Below are positions 12,617-59,048 of a stretch of 64,000 bases of DNA, in pieces. Every line of letters begins with the position of its first letter. Within the stretch, counting starts at the first letter, position 1. The notes beneath the pieces are model-generated. The model was not told the origin of the DNA, ran no database searches, and saw only the letters and a program-made list of their open reading frames with translations. The translations under genes were made by a program, and so were the position numbers. The stretch spans positions 164,672,001 to 164,736,000 of the forward strand of contig OX597816.1 in the NCBI GenBank assembly GCA_951406725.2, in the 5' to 3' direction. This DNA comes from Octopus vulgaris. Lineage: Eukaryota.

Positions 12617-13453
12617 CATATATTTTATTTATTACACTATTGTATGACTGAGCGCCTTCGCGTCGATTCGATTCGATTCGTTCCGTTTCGTTTCTTCTTC
12701 TTCTCCCAGTACAGTTTTTATATATAATTATGACGCGAAACCCTATACCTCTTTGCTTAACCTTCCCTTCTCTCCCTTTCTCTCTCTCTCTCACTCCTCC
12801 TCATCTCTCTCACAGCCGTTTGTCTTCCTCTATCTCTCTCTCTCTCTCACTCCTCATCTCTCTCACAGCCGGCCAAATACTTCCTTTTGCATGCGGCCTT
12901 CTAACTGTAAACACACGGTTTTCTTGCGCTCCTTGAATCTCTCCTCGTCTAGGCAAAAAAGGCCCTCTTTGGTTGTTTTCTTGTGTGTTTTTATTTCTTG
13001 TATTGTATTTTTTTGTAATTGTATTTTTATTTTGTATTTTATTTTGTATTTTATTTTGTAATTTTATTTGTATCGTTTTTACGTCCTGTTTGTGTCACAT
13101 TTTGTTATTTCCTTGTTTTTACCCCTCTGCGAAGTAATTTCCTTTAATTTCTTCGCAGGAAGGGCTAGTTCGACGAGTCGTGTTCTGTCCTCACCTTCGA
13201 AACACGCTGGAGTTGAACTAGGGACAGCTGATGAAGGGGATTTTTCCTTGTGTAGTTTGTCTAGTACTCTGTTTTTTCTTTGTAAAAAAAAGGTTCGTTC
13301 CATGCTTGTTTTTACGTTCTCGTTGAGTTCTGCGTCTATTTGTGGTGTCCTGTACTCACGTATATATATTTATATATGCATGTATATATACATGTAGATG
13401 TAGGTACGTACATATATGTATATATGTATGCATATATTTTATTTATTACACTA

Positions 13454-15828: not shown

Positions 15829-16813
15829 AGTCCTCTTGTTCCACCACCCATACATTTTTTATGGAGCGAATTTTACTCACAAAGTTTTCATCAATCCGAG
15901 GTTATTACGCAGTGGGAGCGAACCCGGAACCACATAATTAGCACTGGGCACAACCCATCGCCCATCTTTATACCCAATGACGACCACGTAAACAGTCAAA
16001 TATTAGGAAGTCCGTACGTCATAAACCACTCCTCGGTCCCTGCATGGCCAAAACATTTTAAATCTCAACGACCAAGTCCTCTTGTTCCACCACCCATACA
16101 TTTTTTATGGAGCGAATTTTACTCACAAAGTTTTCATCAATCCGAGGTTATTACGCAGTGGGAGCGAACCCGGAACCACATAATTAGCACTGGGCACAAC
16201 CCATCGCCCATCTTTATACCCAATGACGACCACGTAAGCAGTCAAATAGTAGGAAGTCCGTACGTCATAAACCACTCCTCGGTCCCTGCATGGCCAAAAC
16301 ATTTTAAATCTCAACGACCAAGTCCTCTTGTTCCACCACCCATACATTTTTTATGGAGCGAATTTTACTCACAAAGTTTTCATCAATCCGAGGTTATTAC
16401 GCAGTGGGAGCGAACCCGGAACCACATAATTAGCACTGGGCACAACCCATCGCCCATCTTTATACCCAATGACGACCACGTAAGCAGTCAAATAGTAGGA
16501 AGTCCGTACGTCATAAACCACTCCTCGGTCCCTGCATGGCCAAAACATTTTAAATCTCAACGACCAAGTCCTCTTGTTCCACCACCCATACATTTTTTTA
16601 TGGAGCGAATTTTACTCACAAAGTTTTCATCAATCCGAGGTTATTACGCAGTGGGAGCGAACTCGGAACCACATGATTAGCACTGGGCACAAGACATCGC
16701 CCATCTTTGCACCCAATGACGATCACGTAAGTAGTCAAGTAGTAGGAAGTCCGTACGTCATAAACCACTCCTCGGTCCCTGCATGGCCAAAACATTTAAA
16801 ATCTCAACGACCA
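15829..16813. repeat. 246 bp tandem repeat, 4 copies
   Basis: agtcctcttgttccaccacc recurs at 15829, 16075, 16321 and 16567; units nearly identical. Confidence 0.95.
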
Positions 16814-26385: not shown

Positions 26386-26803
26386 ATATAATTAGTGAAT
26401 GGAAGAAATGGAGTTGAACGAAGATTGTACAGAATTCCTTTTATTACATTCTACACATGTTTCAAAGGCCACAATTTTCCAAATTCTGATTAAATAAGGA
26501 TACCATATTGCAGCTTTCTCTTCAGGAAAAACCAGGAATTACGTTGATTTCAACGTACATTGATAAACAGTTTACCCATGGGCTCTTAAGGAGCGTCCTC
26601 GTTCGAATTGCTTTGCTGCGCCTCTGTTTTGTTTTGTTCTGACAACGTAATTCCTGGTTTTTCCTGAAGAGAAAGCTGCAATATGGTATCCTTATTTAAT
26701 CAGAATTTGGAAAATTGTGGCCTTTGAAACATGTGTAGAATGTAATAAAAGGAATTCTGTACAATCTTCGTTCAACTCCATTTCTTCCATTCACTAATTA
26801 TAT
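26386..26803. repeat. 161 bp perfect inverted repeat with 96 bp spacer, one HHR per arm
   Basis: Arms 26386-26546 and 26643-26803 are reverse complements; right arm runs into (TA)n. Confidence 0.9.
26661..26740 (+). ncRNA. Type I hammerhead with long helix II and palindromic helix III (mirror copy 26449-26528, minus)
   Basis: UUC-CUGAAGA-G-AAAGCUGCAAU..AUUGUGGCCUUU-GAAA-CAUGUG-UA-GAA; helix I only 3 bp. Confidence 0.6.
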
Positions 26804-26902
26804 ATATATATATATATATATATAGGTAAACAGTAAAAATAATTACAGACATGGACAAGAACATGAAACGCCACAGAGACGACACAAGAACCACAGGACG
26901 GG

Positions 26903-27049
26903 ACATTCGAAGCCCTCAGTCATCAGTCAAGAACCAGATCATCTTAGCAATTTCGGCTGATTAATCTTGAGATTGCTCCGATATGGGCAGCCCGCCAAGG
27001 AAAATCTAAGCCAAGTGCATTAGATCCCCTGGAAGAAAGCTTCGAATGT
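26903..27049 (-). ncRNA. Non-circularly permuted hammerhead ribozyme, complete copy (second subfamily)
   Basis: 15 bp closing helix; hairpin; II GGCUG/CAGCC; P0 CCAUAUC/GAUCUGG; III AGCAAU/AUUGCU; AUC site; I UCAAGA/UCUUGA; CUGAUGA at 26926-26920; lies in (TA)n-flanked element 26824-27520. Confidence 0.8.
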
Positions 27050-27516
27050 ATACAACACGAGGACGGAAAACGAACGAAGTACACGAACAAAAATACAGAA
27101 TACGTGACAACAATAAGAATACAAAAACGTAAAAACAATAACGGTAAAAATAAAGTATAAAAAATAAACAACAAAACACAACCAGGACGTAGGACAAGGG
27201 TCTTTCGACAGGACGAATTGAGTATGGGGCTGGCTTATGAAGTTGTGCCTAATGGCCACAGGGAGACGAACAAGTACGTGTTGCTTCAGCGGCTGCTGGA
27301 ACGAAAAGAGCGCTCAACAGCGGCTAGCGGTCACGTGAGAACAAAAGACAAGAGAAAGGGACAGATGAAAAGAGAGAGAAGGTGGACGAGGGAGGAGAAG
27401 AAAGAGACAGATCGAGGGGGCTGGAGGTGAGAGAGATAGAGAAACGTAGAAGGGGGGGGGGGAAGACGGATGGAGAGGGAAAGAAAGGAGGGGGAATAAG
27501 GGAGGAGAGAGAGAGA

Positions 27517-27599
<83 letters not shown>

Positions 27600-35115: not shown

Positions 35116-35198
35116 GGTCCCGGGTTGATTCGGGGTTAACCACAGTAAATAAGGTACTCAATACATAGTAGAGTAAAATTAATTTATTATATAGAAGG

Positions 35199-35249
35199 AG
35201 CTTCTACAGGACTAGAACTGTTTCATTCAAGAGAAATCTTCAGGAAGCT
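35199..35249 (-). ncRNA. Type I hammerhead ribozyme
   Basis: AGCUUC-CUGAAGA-U-UUC(UCUU)GAA-U-GAAA-CAG(UUCUAGUC)CUG-UA-GAAGCU. Confidence 0.75.
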
Positions 35250-35398
35250 GCTACATCAGGATGGTCGAAGAAGAACGATCTCCATCGAATTCTTTTGATG
35301 AACTCATCAGTCCGTCTAATGAGGGCTTTTTGGTACTGTTTCCTTGGTGGGATAGTAATGTTCTTCAGGGAAGTGTCGAGGTCGATTCTTGTCAGCAT
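35240..35398 (-). pseudogene. 52-codon N-terminal fragment of a Penelope-like retroelement ORF
   Basis: MLTRIDLDTSLKNITIPPRKQYQKALIRRTDEFIKRIRWRSFFFDHPDVAAS*; resembles the SLKNIP..Y...LI....FIKR.RW..FF N-terminal motif I recall from PLE RT proteins. Confidence 0.6.
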
Positions 35399-35585
35399 TT
35401 TTTCTTGGTGATGGTTATAAGGGCACTAGGGTGTGCTAGGATATGTAGGTCCCGGGTTGATTCGGGGTTAACCACAGTAAATAAGGTACTCAATACATAG
35501 TAGAGTAAAATTAATTTATTATATAGAAGGAGCTTCTACAGGACTAGAACTGTTTCATTCAAGAGAAATCTTCAGGAAATCTTCA

Positions 35586-35640
35586 GGAGCTTCCTGAAGA
35601 TTTCTCTTGAATGAAACAGTTCTAGTCCTGTAGAAGCTCC
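35586..35640 (+). ncRNA. Type I hammerhead ribozyme (inverted copy)
   Basis: GGAGCUUC/GAAGCUCC helix I, CUGAAGA, GAAA, ACAG/CUGU helix III, GUA site. Confidence 0.75.
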
Positions 35641-35649
35641 TTCTATATA

Positions 35650-35740
<91 letters not shown>

Positions 35741-35800
35741 AAATACAAAATGGGACAACAAAACATCCAGATAGACGATACAAAGAAAGCAAGGACGGGT

Positions 35801-35943
35801 CATTCGAAGTTTTCTTTCCTCAGTCAAGTACCAGATTATCTTCGCCATTTCGGCTGATTATACTTGAGATTGCTCCAATCTGGCCAGTCCCAAGGGAAAA
35901 CTAAGCTAAGAGCATTAGATTCCTTGGAAGAAAGCAGCGAATG
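35801..35943 (-). ncRNA. Non-circularly permuted hammerhead, complete with mismatches
   Basis: Closing UUUCUU/AAGAAA; hairpin CCAAGG/CCUUGG; II GACUG/CAGCC; P0 CCAGAUU/AAUCUGG; III AGCAAU/AUGGCG; AUC site; I UCAAGUA/UACUUGA; CUGAGGA. Confidence 0.75.
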
Positions 35944-35992
35944 TATACAAAAACAAGGACGGAAAAAACGGACGATGTTACACAAATACAAT

Positions 35993-36107
<115 letters not shown>

Positions 36108-37185: not shown

Positions 37186-37219
37186 TGGAGAAGAGAAAAC
37201 AACGCGTGTGTTCGGTCAT

Positions 37220-37600
37220 ATAATAACAATATAATAAATAAAACATATGCATATATACATACATATATGTACATATTTACATCTACATGTATATATATAT
37301 GCATATATGAGTACAGGATACCACAAATAAACGTAGAACACAACGAGAAACGAAAACATATAATCAAACAAGGAAACGGGCTTCTTTTAACAACGAAAAA
37401 ACAGAGTACAGGACAAACAATACTATACAAGGAAAATTCCCCGTTTCCTTGTTTGATTTTATGTTTTCGTTTCTCGTTGTGTTCTACGTTTATTTGTGGT
37501 ATCCTGTACTCATATATGCATGAATATATATACATGTAGATGTAAGTATGTACATATATGTATGTATATATGCATATGTTTTATTTATTATATTGTTATA
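37220..37600. repeat. ~160 bp inverted repeat made from the tail of the permuted-HHR element
   Basis: 37220-37380 vs 37440-37600; homologous to the 13240-13454 tail; (TA)n on both sides. Confidence 0.85.
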
Positions 37601-37652
37601 TATATATATATATATATATATATTGATGTTTGTTCTCTAATCAAAATATATA

Positions 37653-38024: not shown

Positions 38025-38086
<62 letters not shown>

Positions 38087-38143
38087 CAGCCGAAATCTGC
38101 GATGAGGGATCAGTTTCTGACTGAAGAATGAAGGCTTTGAATG
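38087..38143 (+). ncRNA. 3' half of permuted hammerhead
   Basis: CAGCC-GAAA..CUGAAGA..GAAGGCUUUGAAUG; homologous to the 26.9 and 35.8 kb copies; truncated at (TA)n. Confidence 0.6.
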
Positions 38144-38200
38144 ACCCGTTTGTCTTTTTGTTCGTCCCTTCGTGTATTTCACGTTATTTATTTATGTAAA

Positions 38201-38243
<43 letters not shown>

Positions 38244-48260: not shown

Positions 48261-48613
48261 ATGGTGGTGGTGGTGGTGGTAATTGTAGTGGATGTGATAG
48301 TCGTGGTAATAGCGATGGCGACAGTACTAGTTACCGATGGCTGTGACAATTTGTTTTTTTATCTATTCTGTTATTCTGGAATCCGAATTTGAGACTCATA
48401 AACGAAGAAGAAAACCCGGAAACTGTTATGTATACCATGTTGTTGAGAGATGACAAGATATCTTAATCTAAAACTTATATTGTCATGACGTGACAAGATA
48501 TTTATTCTGAATGTCTGAAGGAAAGAAAAATAGCTGAAGATTTGGAACAGAATTCTTCTCAAGTAAACAAATATATATTATTTCGGCTAGAAATAATATA
48601 AAAAAAAAAGATT

Positions 48614-48696
48614 TAGCACGAGTGGGGTTCGAACCCACGCGGACATTCGTCCATTGGAACTTAAGTCCAACGCCTTAACCACTCGGCCATCGTGCT
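48614..48696 (-). tRNA. tRNA-Leu-TAA: tRNA-Leu (anticodon UAA)
   Basis: 83 nt cloverleaf: AGCACGA/TCGTGCT acceptor, TTGGA-CTTAAGT-TCCAA anticodon arm, long variable arm, GGTTCGAACC, followed by a T9 terminator. Confidence 0.96.
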
Positions 48697-48819
48697 GCTG
48701 TCTGCCAAGCGGCGAAATAAGTAGTTTTGTTCTGTGATAGCTAAAGATTTGGAACAGAATTCTTCTCAAGTAAACAAATATATATTATTTCGGCTAGAAA
48801 AAATTTTAAAAAAATGACT

Positions 48820-48902
48820 TAGCACGAGTGGGGTTCGAACCCACGCGGACATTCGTCCATTGGAACTTAAGTCCAACGCCTTAACCACTCGGCCATCGTG
48901 CT
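48820..48902 (-). tRNA. tRNA-Leu-TAA: tRNA-Leu (anticodon UAA), identical second copy
   Basis: Identical 83 nt sequence followed by a T7 terminator. Confidence 0.96.
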
Positions 48903-49464
48903 GCTGTCTGCCAAGCGGCGAAATAAGTAGTTTTGTTCTGTGACTGTTGCTGATCAGCCACAGTCACATGGTGTAACGTTTATCAGGTTAAGTGTTGCTG
49001 CTTGAAACTAACGTGTATGGGGCAAGAAACACAAGTTGTTGAATCGATGCCAAAACATAACTGGTATTTATTTTTTTTCAAAATAAATTGGAACGTGGAA
49101 TAGACTGTAAATTAGTACAATCGTTGGCATACCTACACAAATGGGCCCCATCTCCTCAACTTTTATACTTTCCTCATAACTATATGAAAAGTGGGTGTTT
49201 TGTGAATGAAATTTTCTACAAGTCTTTTTCAGAGGGTGTAGAATCCGATTATATCAGAATTTAATGGGGGAAGTGGGGATGTAAGCATGTACACATATAT
49301 TATAGGTGCAGTAGTGATTGTGTGGTAAGAAGTTCGCTTCCCAACCACATGGTTCCGGGTTCAGTCCCACTGCGTGGCCCCTTGAACAAGTGTCTTCTCT
49401 GACAGCCTCGGGCCAACTAATGCCTTGTGAATGGATTTAGTAGGCGGAAACTGAAAGAAGCCCA

Positions 49465-53596: not shown

Positions 53597-53957
53597 CCAC
53601 ATAAACGCACATAAAAAAATAATGTCTTGTATTCTGCAGACAAAACAAACGCTTTATTAACTTTTAGTGTTCTAACAATACAATAAATAAGAATATAAAG
53701 CCTACCACATACGTGTATGTGTGCGTGTGTGTGTATGTGGGCTTGTAAATATATACATATAGTCATATACATACATAGACAAACACATACAGACACGCAC
53801 ACACACGTACGTACAGAAGTGCATCTGGAAAAACCATTTTCGTCTAAATAGATATTCAAACAACCTGTTTAGAACAGTAGAGATCCTATAGGAGGAACTT
53901 AGCTGTTCAAAACAAAATTTAAAGAACACATAAGGAAATATGAAAAAAAAAAAAATA

Positions 53958-54008
<51 letters not shown>

Positions 54009-54209
54009 GTTTATACAACACAGTTGCGAACGTGTGTGTGTGTGTGTGTGTGTGTGTGCAAGGGTGTGCGTATATATATCGTATAGACAACCGATGCGTA
54101 CAGGCACTGTGTTGATACGTACACAAAGGACTTAGCGGTTTGTTTGCCAATGATACAAATGTACACTCACATATGCATTATTTATACATATACATACATA
54201 TATACGTAC

Positions 54210-54258
<49 letters not shown>

Positions 54259-54330
54259 TATATATACACATGCATATATACACATATATATATATACATA
54301 CATACATACATACATATATATATATATATA

Positions 54331-54370
<40 letters not shown>

Positions 54371-55291
54371 GCACACATACATACATATGTGTATATATAG
54401 ATGTGTATATATATGTAAATATATATGTACGTATATATATGTATGTATACATATATATACATATACAAATACATATATATGCCAATATATATATACATAT
54501 AAGTTTATATGCATAGTTATGTATGTGTATATATACATATATGTGAATATACACCTACAGTAAATATGTTATATATACATGGGTTTATATACATATATAT
54601 GTGTGCGTGTGTGTGTATGTGGGCTTGTAAATATATACATATAGTCATATACATACATAGACAAACACATACAGACACGCACACACACGTACGTACAGAA
54701 GTGCATCTGGAAAAACCATTTTCGTCTAAATAGATATTCAAACAACCTGTTTAGAACAGTAGAGCAGCAGAAGAAGAAGAAGAAAAAGAAGAAGATGAAG
54801 AAGGAGGAGGAGGAGGAGGAGGTGAATAAGGAGGAGGAGAAGAAGAAGAAGTTGAAGAAGGAGGAGGAGGAGGAGGAGAAGGAATAGGAGGAGAATAAGA
54901 AGGAGGAAGAGAAGAAGAAGAAGAAGAAGAAGGAGAAAGAGAAGTTGAAGGAGGAGGAGGAGGAGAAGAAGAAGAAGAAGGAGGAGGAGGAGGAGTATAA
55001 GAAGAAGGAGGAGGGGAGGAGGAGGAGAAGAAGAAGAAGAAGAAGAAGGAGAAGAAGAAGGAGAAGAAGAAGGAGAAGAAGAAGGAGGAGGAGGAGAAGA
55101 AGAAGAAGAAGAAGAAGAAGAACAAGAAGAAGAAGAAGAAGAAGAAGAACAACAACACAAGAAACCCGATTGTTTTCCAACCTTGTACCACGTAAAATCT
55201 GATTATTTTAATTATCAACTTGAATATAATACATTTAAGGATAGATTCAGGTCAGGCTTTATTAGAAACATCTGTTTAAGACTAATATCGT

Positions 55292-55349
<58 letters not shown>

Positions 55350-55740
55350 CACACATACACATATGTATATAGCCACAGTTATGTATGTGTATATATACAT
55401 ATATGTGAATATACACCTACAGTAAATATGTTATATATACATGGGTTTATATACATATATATATGTGTGTGTGCATGTATTGTGTGTGTGTGCGAATATG
55501 TTTATATATATATATGTACACATATGTCTTTTATATTCTACACATGTGCACGCGCACATGCACACTCACACATGCAAACACACAAGCGTGGCACCTTACG
55601 CCAGTGTCTTCTACTGTAGTCTAAGGCTGCCCCAAACCTTGTGAGTGGATTTGGTAGGGGGTCGATTTGTTCGACTAAACAAACCCGTGAAGGCGGTGCT
55701 CCAGGATGGCCACGGTGACATGACTGAAACAAATAAAAGA

Positions 55741-55807
<67 letters not shown>

Positions 55808-56155
55808 AATAGAGTGAATGAATTATCCTATGTTTATCGTCAGCATGGAAAATTCGTTTAACCGAAAACTGGGTAACAAATTCACGTCAAAAACACGGTT
55901 GAAGCGACCTGTCCAAGGGTAGAAACTCCGGGTTCATGTGCAGAAATTTGTGTGTTGTATATGAATAAATGAAGAAGAAGGAGGGGGAGAAGAAGAAGAA
56001 GAAGAACAACAACAACAACAACAAGAAACCCGATTGTTTTCCAACCTTGTACCACGTAAAATCTGATTATTTTAATTATCAACTTGAATATAATACATTT
56101 AAGGATAGATTCAGGTCAGGCTTTATTAGAAACATCTGTTTAAGACTAATATCGT

Positions 56156-56243
<88 letters not shown>

Positions 56244-58664: not shown

Positions 58665-59048
58665 CCATATTTCTGCTGAAATACACATTTAAAAAATATT
58701 GTTACTTAGAGAGAAATTATAAAATTAGAAACACTATGGACCTCAATTATTTATGGCTCTGACAAAGGTGTGTACTTTTAATTGATTAAAGTCAAACAAT
58801 GACATGTAGATTATATCTATGTGTTAGGTAGCTTCCAGTCTTTTTGCTTCTACTACCCATATTTCTGCTGAAATATACAGTTAAAAATATTGTTACTTAG
58901 AGAAATTATAAAATTACAAACCCTATGGACCTCAATTATTTATGGCTCTGACAAAGGTGTGTACTTTTAATTGATTAAAGTCAAACAATGACATGTAGAT
59001 TATATCTGTGGGTGTTAGGTAGCTTCCAGTCTTTTTGCTTTTACTACC
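58665..59048. repeat. ~193 bp tandem duplication
   Basis: catatttctgctgaaata..gcttccagtctttttgctt twice. Confidence 0.9.

Follow-up and report, generated by a model that had tools for sequence, protein, structure and literature searches.

What kind of RNA is encoded at 35801-35943 of the window (the whole 64,000-nt stretch of Octopus vulgaris DNA that was analyzed), and do the base differences between this sequence and a related one at 26903-27049 count as evidence for its fold? Both were read on the minus strand, which is the RNA sense, and are referred to below as the ribozyme copies of subfamily B (35801-35943) and subfamily A (26903-27049). Our answer, to which we give a probability of about 0.8, is that the first is a decayed, 5'-truncated retroelement copy whose RNA likely would fold into a split-core, kink-turn-closed, self-cutting hammerhead and be copied by a Penelope-like reverse transcriptase. 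The parts of the B copy, in RNA order, and the other copies in the window are as follows, with the basis for each in parentheses.

About 35743..35995, minus strand: subfamily B single copy, 5'-truncated, between TA/CA microsatellites, RNA sense minus (BLAST ends, which cluster against B-lineage loci at 35743, with 33 matches, and at 35991-35997)
35928..35943, minus strand: outer helix 5' strand (CAUUCG...UUUCUU), pairing with 35801-35816 (sequence, fold)
35890..35927, minus strand: hairpin H, directly before G10.1, deleted in subfamily D (fold; D copies that lack it)
35885..35889, minus strand: helix II 5' strand, GGCUG in the family and GACUG here, with a near-private lesion at 35888 (pairing, copies)
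35877..35883, minus strand: P0 5' strand, the equivalent of the type SGC stem I-II "interaction" helix (covariation; two-sided changes at 4/7 pairs in 18 representatives)
35874..35876, minus strand: GGA, non-bulged strand of a predicted kink-turn, 3n=G, 2n=G, 1n=A (motif; conserved at G94/G97/A98% in 179 copies)
35868..35873, minus strand: helix III strand and AUC triplet, predicted cut between 35868 and 35867 (conservation, 5' ends)
35862..35867, minus strand: helix I strand 3' of the predicted cut (covariation; helix I is 99.1% paired, with two-sided changes at 4/6 pairs in the 18 representatives)
35852..35856, minus strand: helix II 3' strand CAGCC, after a 5-nt linker at 35857-35861 (covariation)
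35844..35851, minus strand: GAAA core at 35848-35851 and helix III strand at 35844-35847, with a private lesion at 35846 (copies)
35838..35843, minus strand: 3-nt bulge and GA-U, bulged strand of the predicted kink-turn (conservation; G99/A99/U97% in 179 copies, the bulge itself varying)
35831..35837, minus strand: P0 3' strand (covariation)
35817..35829, minus strand: helix I strand at 35824-35829 and CUGAGGA core at 35817-35823 (only position 7 varies)
35801..35816, minus strand: outer helix 3' strand, beginning right after A9, AAGAAA pairing with UUUCUU (sequence, fold)
26819..27518, minus strand: young subfamily A copy, 780-bp monomer, in tandem arrays elsewhere (copies)
26903-27049, minus strand: subfamily A ribozyme, predicted cut between 26971 and 26970 (sequence)
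38085..38205, plus strand: subfamily D copy, 5'-truncated just past the predicted cut (copies)
13122..13245, plus strand: family K ribozyme, sequence-unrelated with the same wiring, predicted cut 13184|13185 (descriptor, sequence, copies)

The first-pass annotation had treated the A and B copies as alignable homologues, and they align at 80% over 222 bp (E 8e-50). All of the base changes it listed are present on the minus strand: for helix I, A has UCAAGA/UCUUGA and B has UCAAGU(A)/(U)ACUUGA, with pair 6 going from A-U to U-A, and the last P0 pair goes from C-G to U-A. It also placed the sole core change, from CUGAUGA to CUGAGGA, at position 7, correctly, given that N7 is the only core position varying among the subfamilies. 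At P0 pair 4, A has U·C where B has G-C; this had been taken as a mismatch repaired in B, which reverses the direction of change, as G-C is the majority state (155/179) and U·C (17/179) is derived in the young A subfamily. A 7-bp helix I had been drawn for B, and the letters are there, but pair 7 is A-U in just 46/179 copies (U·U in 95, A·A in 32) and helix I is thus 6 bp.

These counts refer to an in-register set of 179 copies, from which 54/233 full-core copies with indels (D, G and E lineages) were dropped. Helix I pair 6 was A-U in 97 of them, U-A in 63, U·G in 8 and otherwise in 11, and the last P0 pair was U-A in 77, C-G in 71, U·G in 26 and otherwise in 5. The substitutions therefore travel in pairs across copies, rather than segregating independently as had been named as the outcome that would count against the fold. 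The annotation called them direct compensatory changes, a description that suits this paired segregation but not the A-versus-B comparison, the base changes of which are fixed differences between two subfamilies and not per-copy evidence. Helix I pair 6 needs a single 5'-side step on the 18-copy tree and so records one historical event. P0 pair 3 is A·C in 43 copies; P0 thus tolerates a mismatch.

The suspicion that the B copy is decaying was well founded. It has one mismatch in helix II (35888, the second pair) and one in helix III (35846), near-private lesions that set it apart from nearly all relatives. At 35846, 28 other B-type rows have the family base and approximately 100% of the contig depth in four runs differs from the window copy; at 35888, 98-100% of that depth differs and three other B rows carry the same change, the depths being from contigs only and the RNA status of the runs a guess. 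As a predicted ribozyme with two near-private lesions, the copy probably no longer cleaves well, and its value is its B-lineage evidence.

The A and B sequences are copies of a non-coding, (TA)n-inserting retroelement. The pattern GCCGAAA N20-32 GACTGANGA gave 11,505 exact matches genome-wide, compared to 13 for a reversed control. A structural descriptor scan of the window matched copy A and a sequence-unrelated repeat at 13185, missed the 35801-35943 copy because of its helix III lesion, and gave 0 matches in 20 block-shuffled windows; taken together, these controls indicate that the signal is not chance. All scored matches (40/40) were 99-100% identical to the A copy, and those to the B copy in its own search were 95-100% identical. 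Further subfamilies (C, D, E, F, G, H, I and J) were found, and the B lineage comprises at least 1,162 copies. The 780-bp monomer of family A occurs singly and as head-to-tail arrays, with one end sharp at a TATATA tract and the other variable. Given the sharp 3' end and the variable 5' ends, the RNA sense is the minus strand and the copies are 5'-truncated. The element RNA is 69% pyrimidine with a longest ATG frame of 68 aa. Clean tandem periods were 776-785 (A), 676-677 (D), 775 (E), 844-855 (F) and 699-713 (G), with one of 872; no clean tandem of the B subfamily was seen in this survey. Contigs from three other organisms also contain the family. Contigs of four runs guessed to be RNA bridge the head-to-tail join, as genomic tandems would too; none of the runs holding the family is on record as RNA, and contigs cannot show RNA ends.

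Some arrangements were observed alongside. A D array at L121 (C27:25603500-25607500) has units of ~1,325 bp, each a 676-bp dimer plus a microsatellite-filled spacer, and looks secondarily amplified as a satellite. Inverted 5' ends with breakpoints inside the ribozyme region, like those of twin-primed insertions, were seen at L159, L164, L188, L226, L300, L302, L335 and L339. Self-comparison of the window returned near-identical tandem, direct or inverted repeats at 15829-16813, 53716-54764, 55108-56225, 58665-59048, 26386-26803 and 37218-37605, and a tandem of ~206-bp units at 48530-48943 includes, on the minus strand, a pair of identical Leu tRNA genes (UAA anticodon). A long inverted repeat (35516-35655 and 35182-35252) contains a conventional type I hammerhead, with CUGAAGA at 35594 (plus strand, predicted cut after 35632) and a second, minus-strand copy with CUGAAGA at 35243; the repeat (35182-35655) looks like the end of another Penelope-like element, ~90 bp from the B copy.

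From 5' to 3' along the RNA, the first helix III strand is followed by AUC and the first helix I strand; a short linker leads on to CAGCC and GAAA, after which come the second strand of helix III, P0, the second strand of helix I and CUGANGA. All hammerhead core nucleotides are thus present on the minus strand in a non-circular order (cut site, GAAA, CUGANGA; S-G-C), which differs from the circular order C-G-S of the type I, II and III hammerheads in Rfam. CUGANGA, GAAA and NUH each adjoin the correct helices I and III, and helix II, using the upstream strand, closes on G12 with G10.1-C11.1, a G-C pair in 17/18 representatives. No subfamily has a helix II strand 0-2 nt after A9, where the outer helix starts instead. 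U16.1 is invariant (179/179) and H17 is C in 156, A in 19, U in 3 and G in 1 of the 179 copies; the cleavage triplet is AUA in subfamilies C (L064-L080) and G (L126) and GUC in E, all conforming to NUH.

Covariation was assessed on 18 hand-picked representatives, the relatedness of which inflates both the shuffle test and the following counts: 95.2% of cells in helices I, II, III and P0 were paired, and 14/23 pairs had two-sided changes, with 0/500 shuffles as high and slid controls at 13-50%. On a tree of the 18 copies from which the tested columns were excluded, two steps each were required at pairs 3 and 4 of helix I and at pair 15.2/16.2 of helix III. Searches of the window against Rfam returned no ribozyme at gathering score and, among the best 150 of 164 rows at E<=10, no hammerhead; the matches were chance ones, mostly to miRNA families. 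Nested folding of the window copy favors the plus strand (z -4.37 compared to -1.16); it cannot represent pseudoknots and so cannot show helices I and II along with P0 and III. HDV-like, pistol, twister and plus-strand ribozyme readings were considered by eye and dropped, given that the helix order did not fit and the insertion polarity points to the minus strand.

The same wiring recurs in sequences unrelated to A and B. The family K element (about 12700-13365; 563 exact matches) has, in order, an outer helix CCCCU/AGGGG right after A9, an 8-bp hairpin, helix II GAAGG/CCUUC, P0, III and I, with a zero-gap four-way junction and helix sequences entirely different from those of A and B. Among Naiad elements, the portion of PMC8557442 drawn on here covers tails from part of roughly 54 records; its File S5 consensus tails fall into four distinct types, each with, by eye, this wiring order and an upstream helix II and P0. 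One tail type has a helix I of just 2 bp, and two octopus records have the hairpin and the kink-turn motif (PMC8557442). An octopus Naiad tail motif has 726 genome matches at <=1 mismatch; by eye, 1.5 kb upstream of 20 such loci showed no recognizable Naiad reading frame. In the same account, as far as it was available, Naiads are reported to be without canonical hammerheads (eight are flagged "HHR_half_core") and cephalopod Naiads to be long inactive (PMC8557442).

Cleavage at AUC would be expected to leave many reverse transcripts ending at that bond or slightly before reaching it. The 5' ends were determined by gapped mapping in position-ordered samples of 96, 95, 72 and 50 copies, each from among 100 matches listed, the last two being of the B lineage and family K, and junctions at +1..+13 from the predicted cut were compared with those at -1..-40. 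These numbered 29 vs 4 of 96, 24 vs 3 of 95, 13 vs 6 of 72 and 10 vs 5 of 50, with per-base hazard ratios of 15, 18, 5 and about 5 and p values of 4e-11, 8e-10, 5e-4 and 3e-3, respectively. The first two samples overlap, and those copies of the second that are not shared with the first give 16 vs 3 by hand count; the second sample also has 11 junctions in the 45 bases further downstream. In the first sample, +1 is the exact position of 5/96 junctions, and one more could also be placed there. The step is weaker in the B lineage, with 0/72 junctions at +1/+2 and the nearest at +3. Most junctions are 2-20 nt short of the cut, their placing shaped by TA microhomology, and 3' ends are mostly 125-170 nt downstream of it. 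About half of all copies extend more than 120 nt past the cut, which suggests that the template was often uncut, circular or jumped. The pile-up is indirect support for the predicted cleavage in vivo.

Which sequence pairs with CAGCC decides between the split core and a simpler fold. No partner lies directly after A9, and the candidates are GGCUG upstream of P0 and GGCU five bases past A9. Use of the latter would make the RNA a plain type-SGC hammerhead with a 5-nt insertion, or one arm of an upstream/downstream on/off switch. In 99 non-B copies the two are nearly alike, with the upstream helix II 96.4% and the downstream 94.7% paired, the latter with one two-sided change (A-U to G-C), and family K could form a weak wobble version of the downstream helix. 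In 80 B-lineage copies, by contrast, the upstream helix is 91.2% and the downstream 50.9% paired, with two of its four pairs broken (C·A in 75/80 and 73/80), and yet B was amplified and has a truncation step. The downstream GGCU is moreover buried in the outer helix, which starts at or near A9 and in B has Watson-Crick pairs at its first six positions; its use would leave P0 unjoined to helix II, and the Naiad tails, so far as PMC8557442 presents them, pair helix II upstream. The simpler fold is therefore improbable. The B lineage, keeping the upstream helix II without the downstream one, favors the split core, and this loss is the most informative point of the locus, one overlooked by the first-pass annotation. 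With helix II paired upstream, and with the outer helix and hairpin H (lost in subfamily D) between, the chain would open between A9 and G10.1; this wiring, with the helix II strand upstream of P0, is supported by covariation among the copies, and P0 is then the counterpart of the type-SGC I/II interaction helix.

A slightly less probable reading takes the structure as a non-catalytic one that binds protein or acts in packaging, descended from a hammerhead, with the junction pile-up due to reverse transcriptase stalls, microhomology or a transcription start. Cleavage is indeed a prediction, junctions are spread over +1..+21 and often use TA microhomology, and the parts of PMC11167929 used here report cleavage to be dispensable in vitro for another Penelope element. 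Such a reading leaves unaccounted for the conservation of catalytic nucleotides across families with unrelated helix sequences and the drop in junction density that two unrelated families share at the equivalent bond; AAU, immediately 5' of the cut, has just as much microhomology and yet 1/191 junctions. It is more doubtful still that cleavage occurs in trans, between tandem units or two RNAs that form an ordinary three-way junction. Tandem arrays exist in the family and dimeric hammerheads are described from animal repeats in the available part of PMC7229834, but the ordinary strand order would require three units, and the short helix I-II linker, P0 and the kink-turn motif make sense only inside one unit; monomeric SGC ribozymes, in the text of PMC10085705 consulted, do cleave.

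In the preferred split-core fold, P0 and helix III are separated by a 3-nt bulge followed by tandem G·A/A·G, opposite GGA. This motif fits the standard kink-turn definition as given in the relevant part of PMC5061560, and, according to the portion of PMC4382518 used, 3n=G means that ions should suffice for folding. The standard form is not followed exactly in subfamilies E and F or in family K. The predicted kink-turn would supply the sharp bend that P0 needs if it is to meet helices I and II at their distal ends.

The sequence, copy number, covariation, insertion pattern and junction distribution are observed, and the fold, the kink, cleavage, a circular RNA and Penelope-like mobilization with internal initiation are inferred. 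The outer helix and hairpin would close the A9|G10.1 gap, forming a four-way junction that in subfamily D is reduced to a three-way one; P0 would tie the far ends of helices I and II, and the kink-turn would bend helix III back onto P0. Tandem or circular RNA would be cut at NUH, giving unit-length RNA for a Penelope-like reverse transcriptase. Reverse transcription may begin internally at the UA-rich tract 125-170 nt past the cut, with nicked genomic (TA)n as the primer, and run to the cut end, where it would often stop and leave short copies, or else go on round a circle or jump, leaving longer copies and 700-870-bp tandems. Internal initiation has been demonstrated for another Penelope-like element; for one Penelope element, ribozyme cleavage was dispensable in vitro and no reads started at the site (both from the sections of PMC11167929 covered). 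Type-SGC ribozymes, with the same strand order, are reported in PMC10085705, in the part seen, to cleave in vitro.

GIY-YIG frames are numerous in the genome, with a 781-aa open frame in 16/148 rows, and of 12 GIY-YIG loci examined, none had this fold within 1.5 kb. That result, with the reported long inactivity of cephalopod Naiads, counts against the proposed explanation. The intact 781-aa frames (L381, L386 and 14 other rows) belong to a young GIY-YIG element that is a candidate mobilizer of the A subfamily; L386 also has a CUGAAGA...GAAA motif in the ordinary order.

Seen more widely, it is quite likely that the wiring represents a seventh hammerhead topology, in which a ring closed by the kink-turn is opened within the catalytic strand, at A9|G10.1, with a helical-junction clamp, that it is the missing Naiad ribozyme, and that it drives recently active large retrozymes whose cut site would be recorded genomically by the ends of thousands of insertions. 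If the fold cleaves, the published assumption that CUGANGA runs straight into helix II would be broken, and non-circular hammerheads would move from environmental RNA to animal genomes, at more than 10,000 copies. It would also explain the seeming absence of ribozymes from Naiads, as descriptor searches would miss a split core. The presence of a kink-turn in a naturally self-cleaving RNA points to control of cleavage by protein or ions. With the truncation step, one can ask from genome sequence alone whether ribozymes of the Penelope type cut in vivo (compare the parts of PMC8557442 and PMC11167929 cited above), and the B lineage serves as a natural control, already at hand, for the choice of helix II.

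Literature searches, which extended to few subscription papers and to Eckert et al. without its supplements, returned no account of the split-core wiring or of an SGC-order hammerhead in an animal. Non-LTR retrozymes, as portrayed in the available portions of Cervera and de la Pena (2020, PMC7229834) and bioRxiv 10.64898/2026.07.22.740005, are likewise non-coding, low-GC, tandem and dispersed, with one hammerhead per unit and coexistence with Penelope-like elements. Non-coding tandem units with one ribozyme each were found for A, D, E, F and G. The retrozyme hammerheads are, however, of type I in units of 170-400 nt (PMC7229834, in part), whereas here the order is S-G-C, not that of a type I hammerhead, and the units are ~680-870 bp, with a non-circularly permuted ribozyme.

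Naiad (Craig et al. 2021, PMC8557442, from the part used) shares (TA)n targets, 5' truncation, tandems, inversions and the 3'-tail wiring. The family described here encodes no protein, the monomer being without coding capacity and lacking an N-terminal GIY-YIG + RT frame, and by eye it has no likeness to the available octopus Naiad tails beyond the core motifs (PMC8557442). The retroelement is thus at most a non-autonomous partner of Naiad. In the pseudoknot-containing hammerhead of PDB 8YDC, a pseudoknot helix supplies helix II, and the core thus tolerates a rewired helix II; its connectivity is pistol-like, and the portion of its account drawn on (PMC11300833) does not describe a kink-turn or an A9 split.

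The closest likeness is to type SGC (HRIMA-1) and type CSG of Eckert et al. (2023, PMC10085705), which, in the text available, have in common with the present RNA the order cut site, GAAA, CUGANGA and a short I-II linker; type SGC also has the extra helix joining the far ends of I and II, here P0. The S-G-C order, the 5-nt linker, a 6-bp helix I, a 5-bp helix II and an I/II interaction helix are all found here, but block C is broken and the ends do not lie before block S and after the interaction helix. According to the same part of that source, the SGC and CSG types come from metatranscriptomes and metagenomes and are absent from known genomes except for one GCS candidate, whereas the host here is a retroelement of an animal genome. 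Eckert et al. thought six block orders possible and considered a large insertion at A9/G10.1 outside the possible (PMC10085705, in the portion covered). Compared to type SGC as described there, block C is split here, helix II does not follow A9, the outer helix and hairpin occupy A9|G10.1, and P0 continues into helix III by way of the kink-turn motif.
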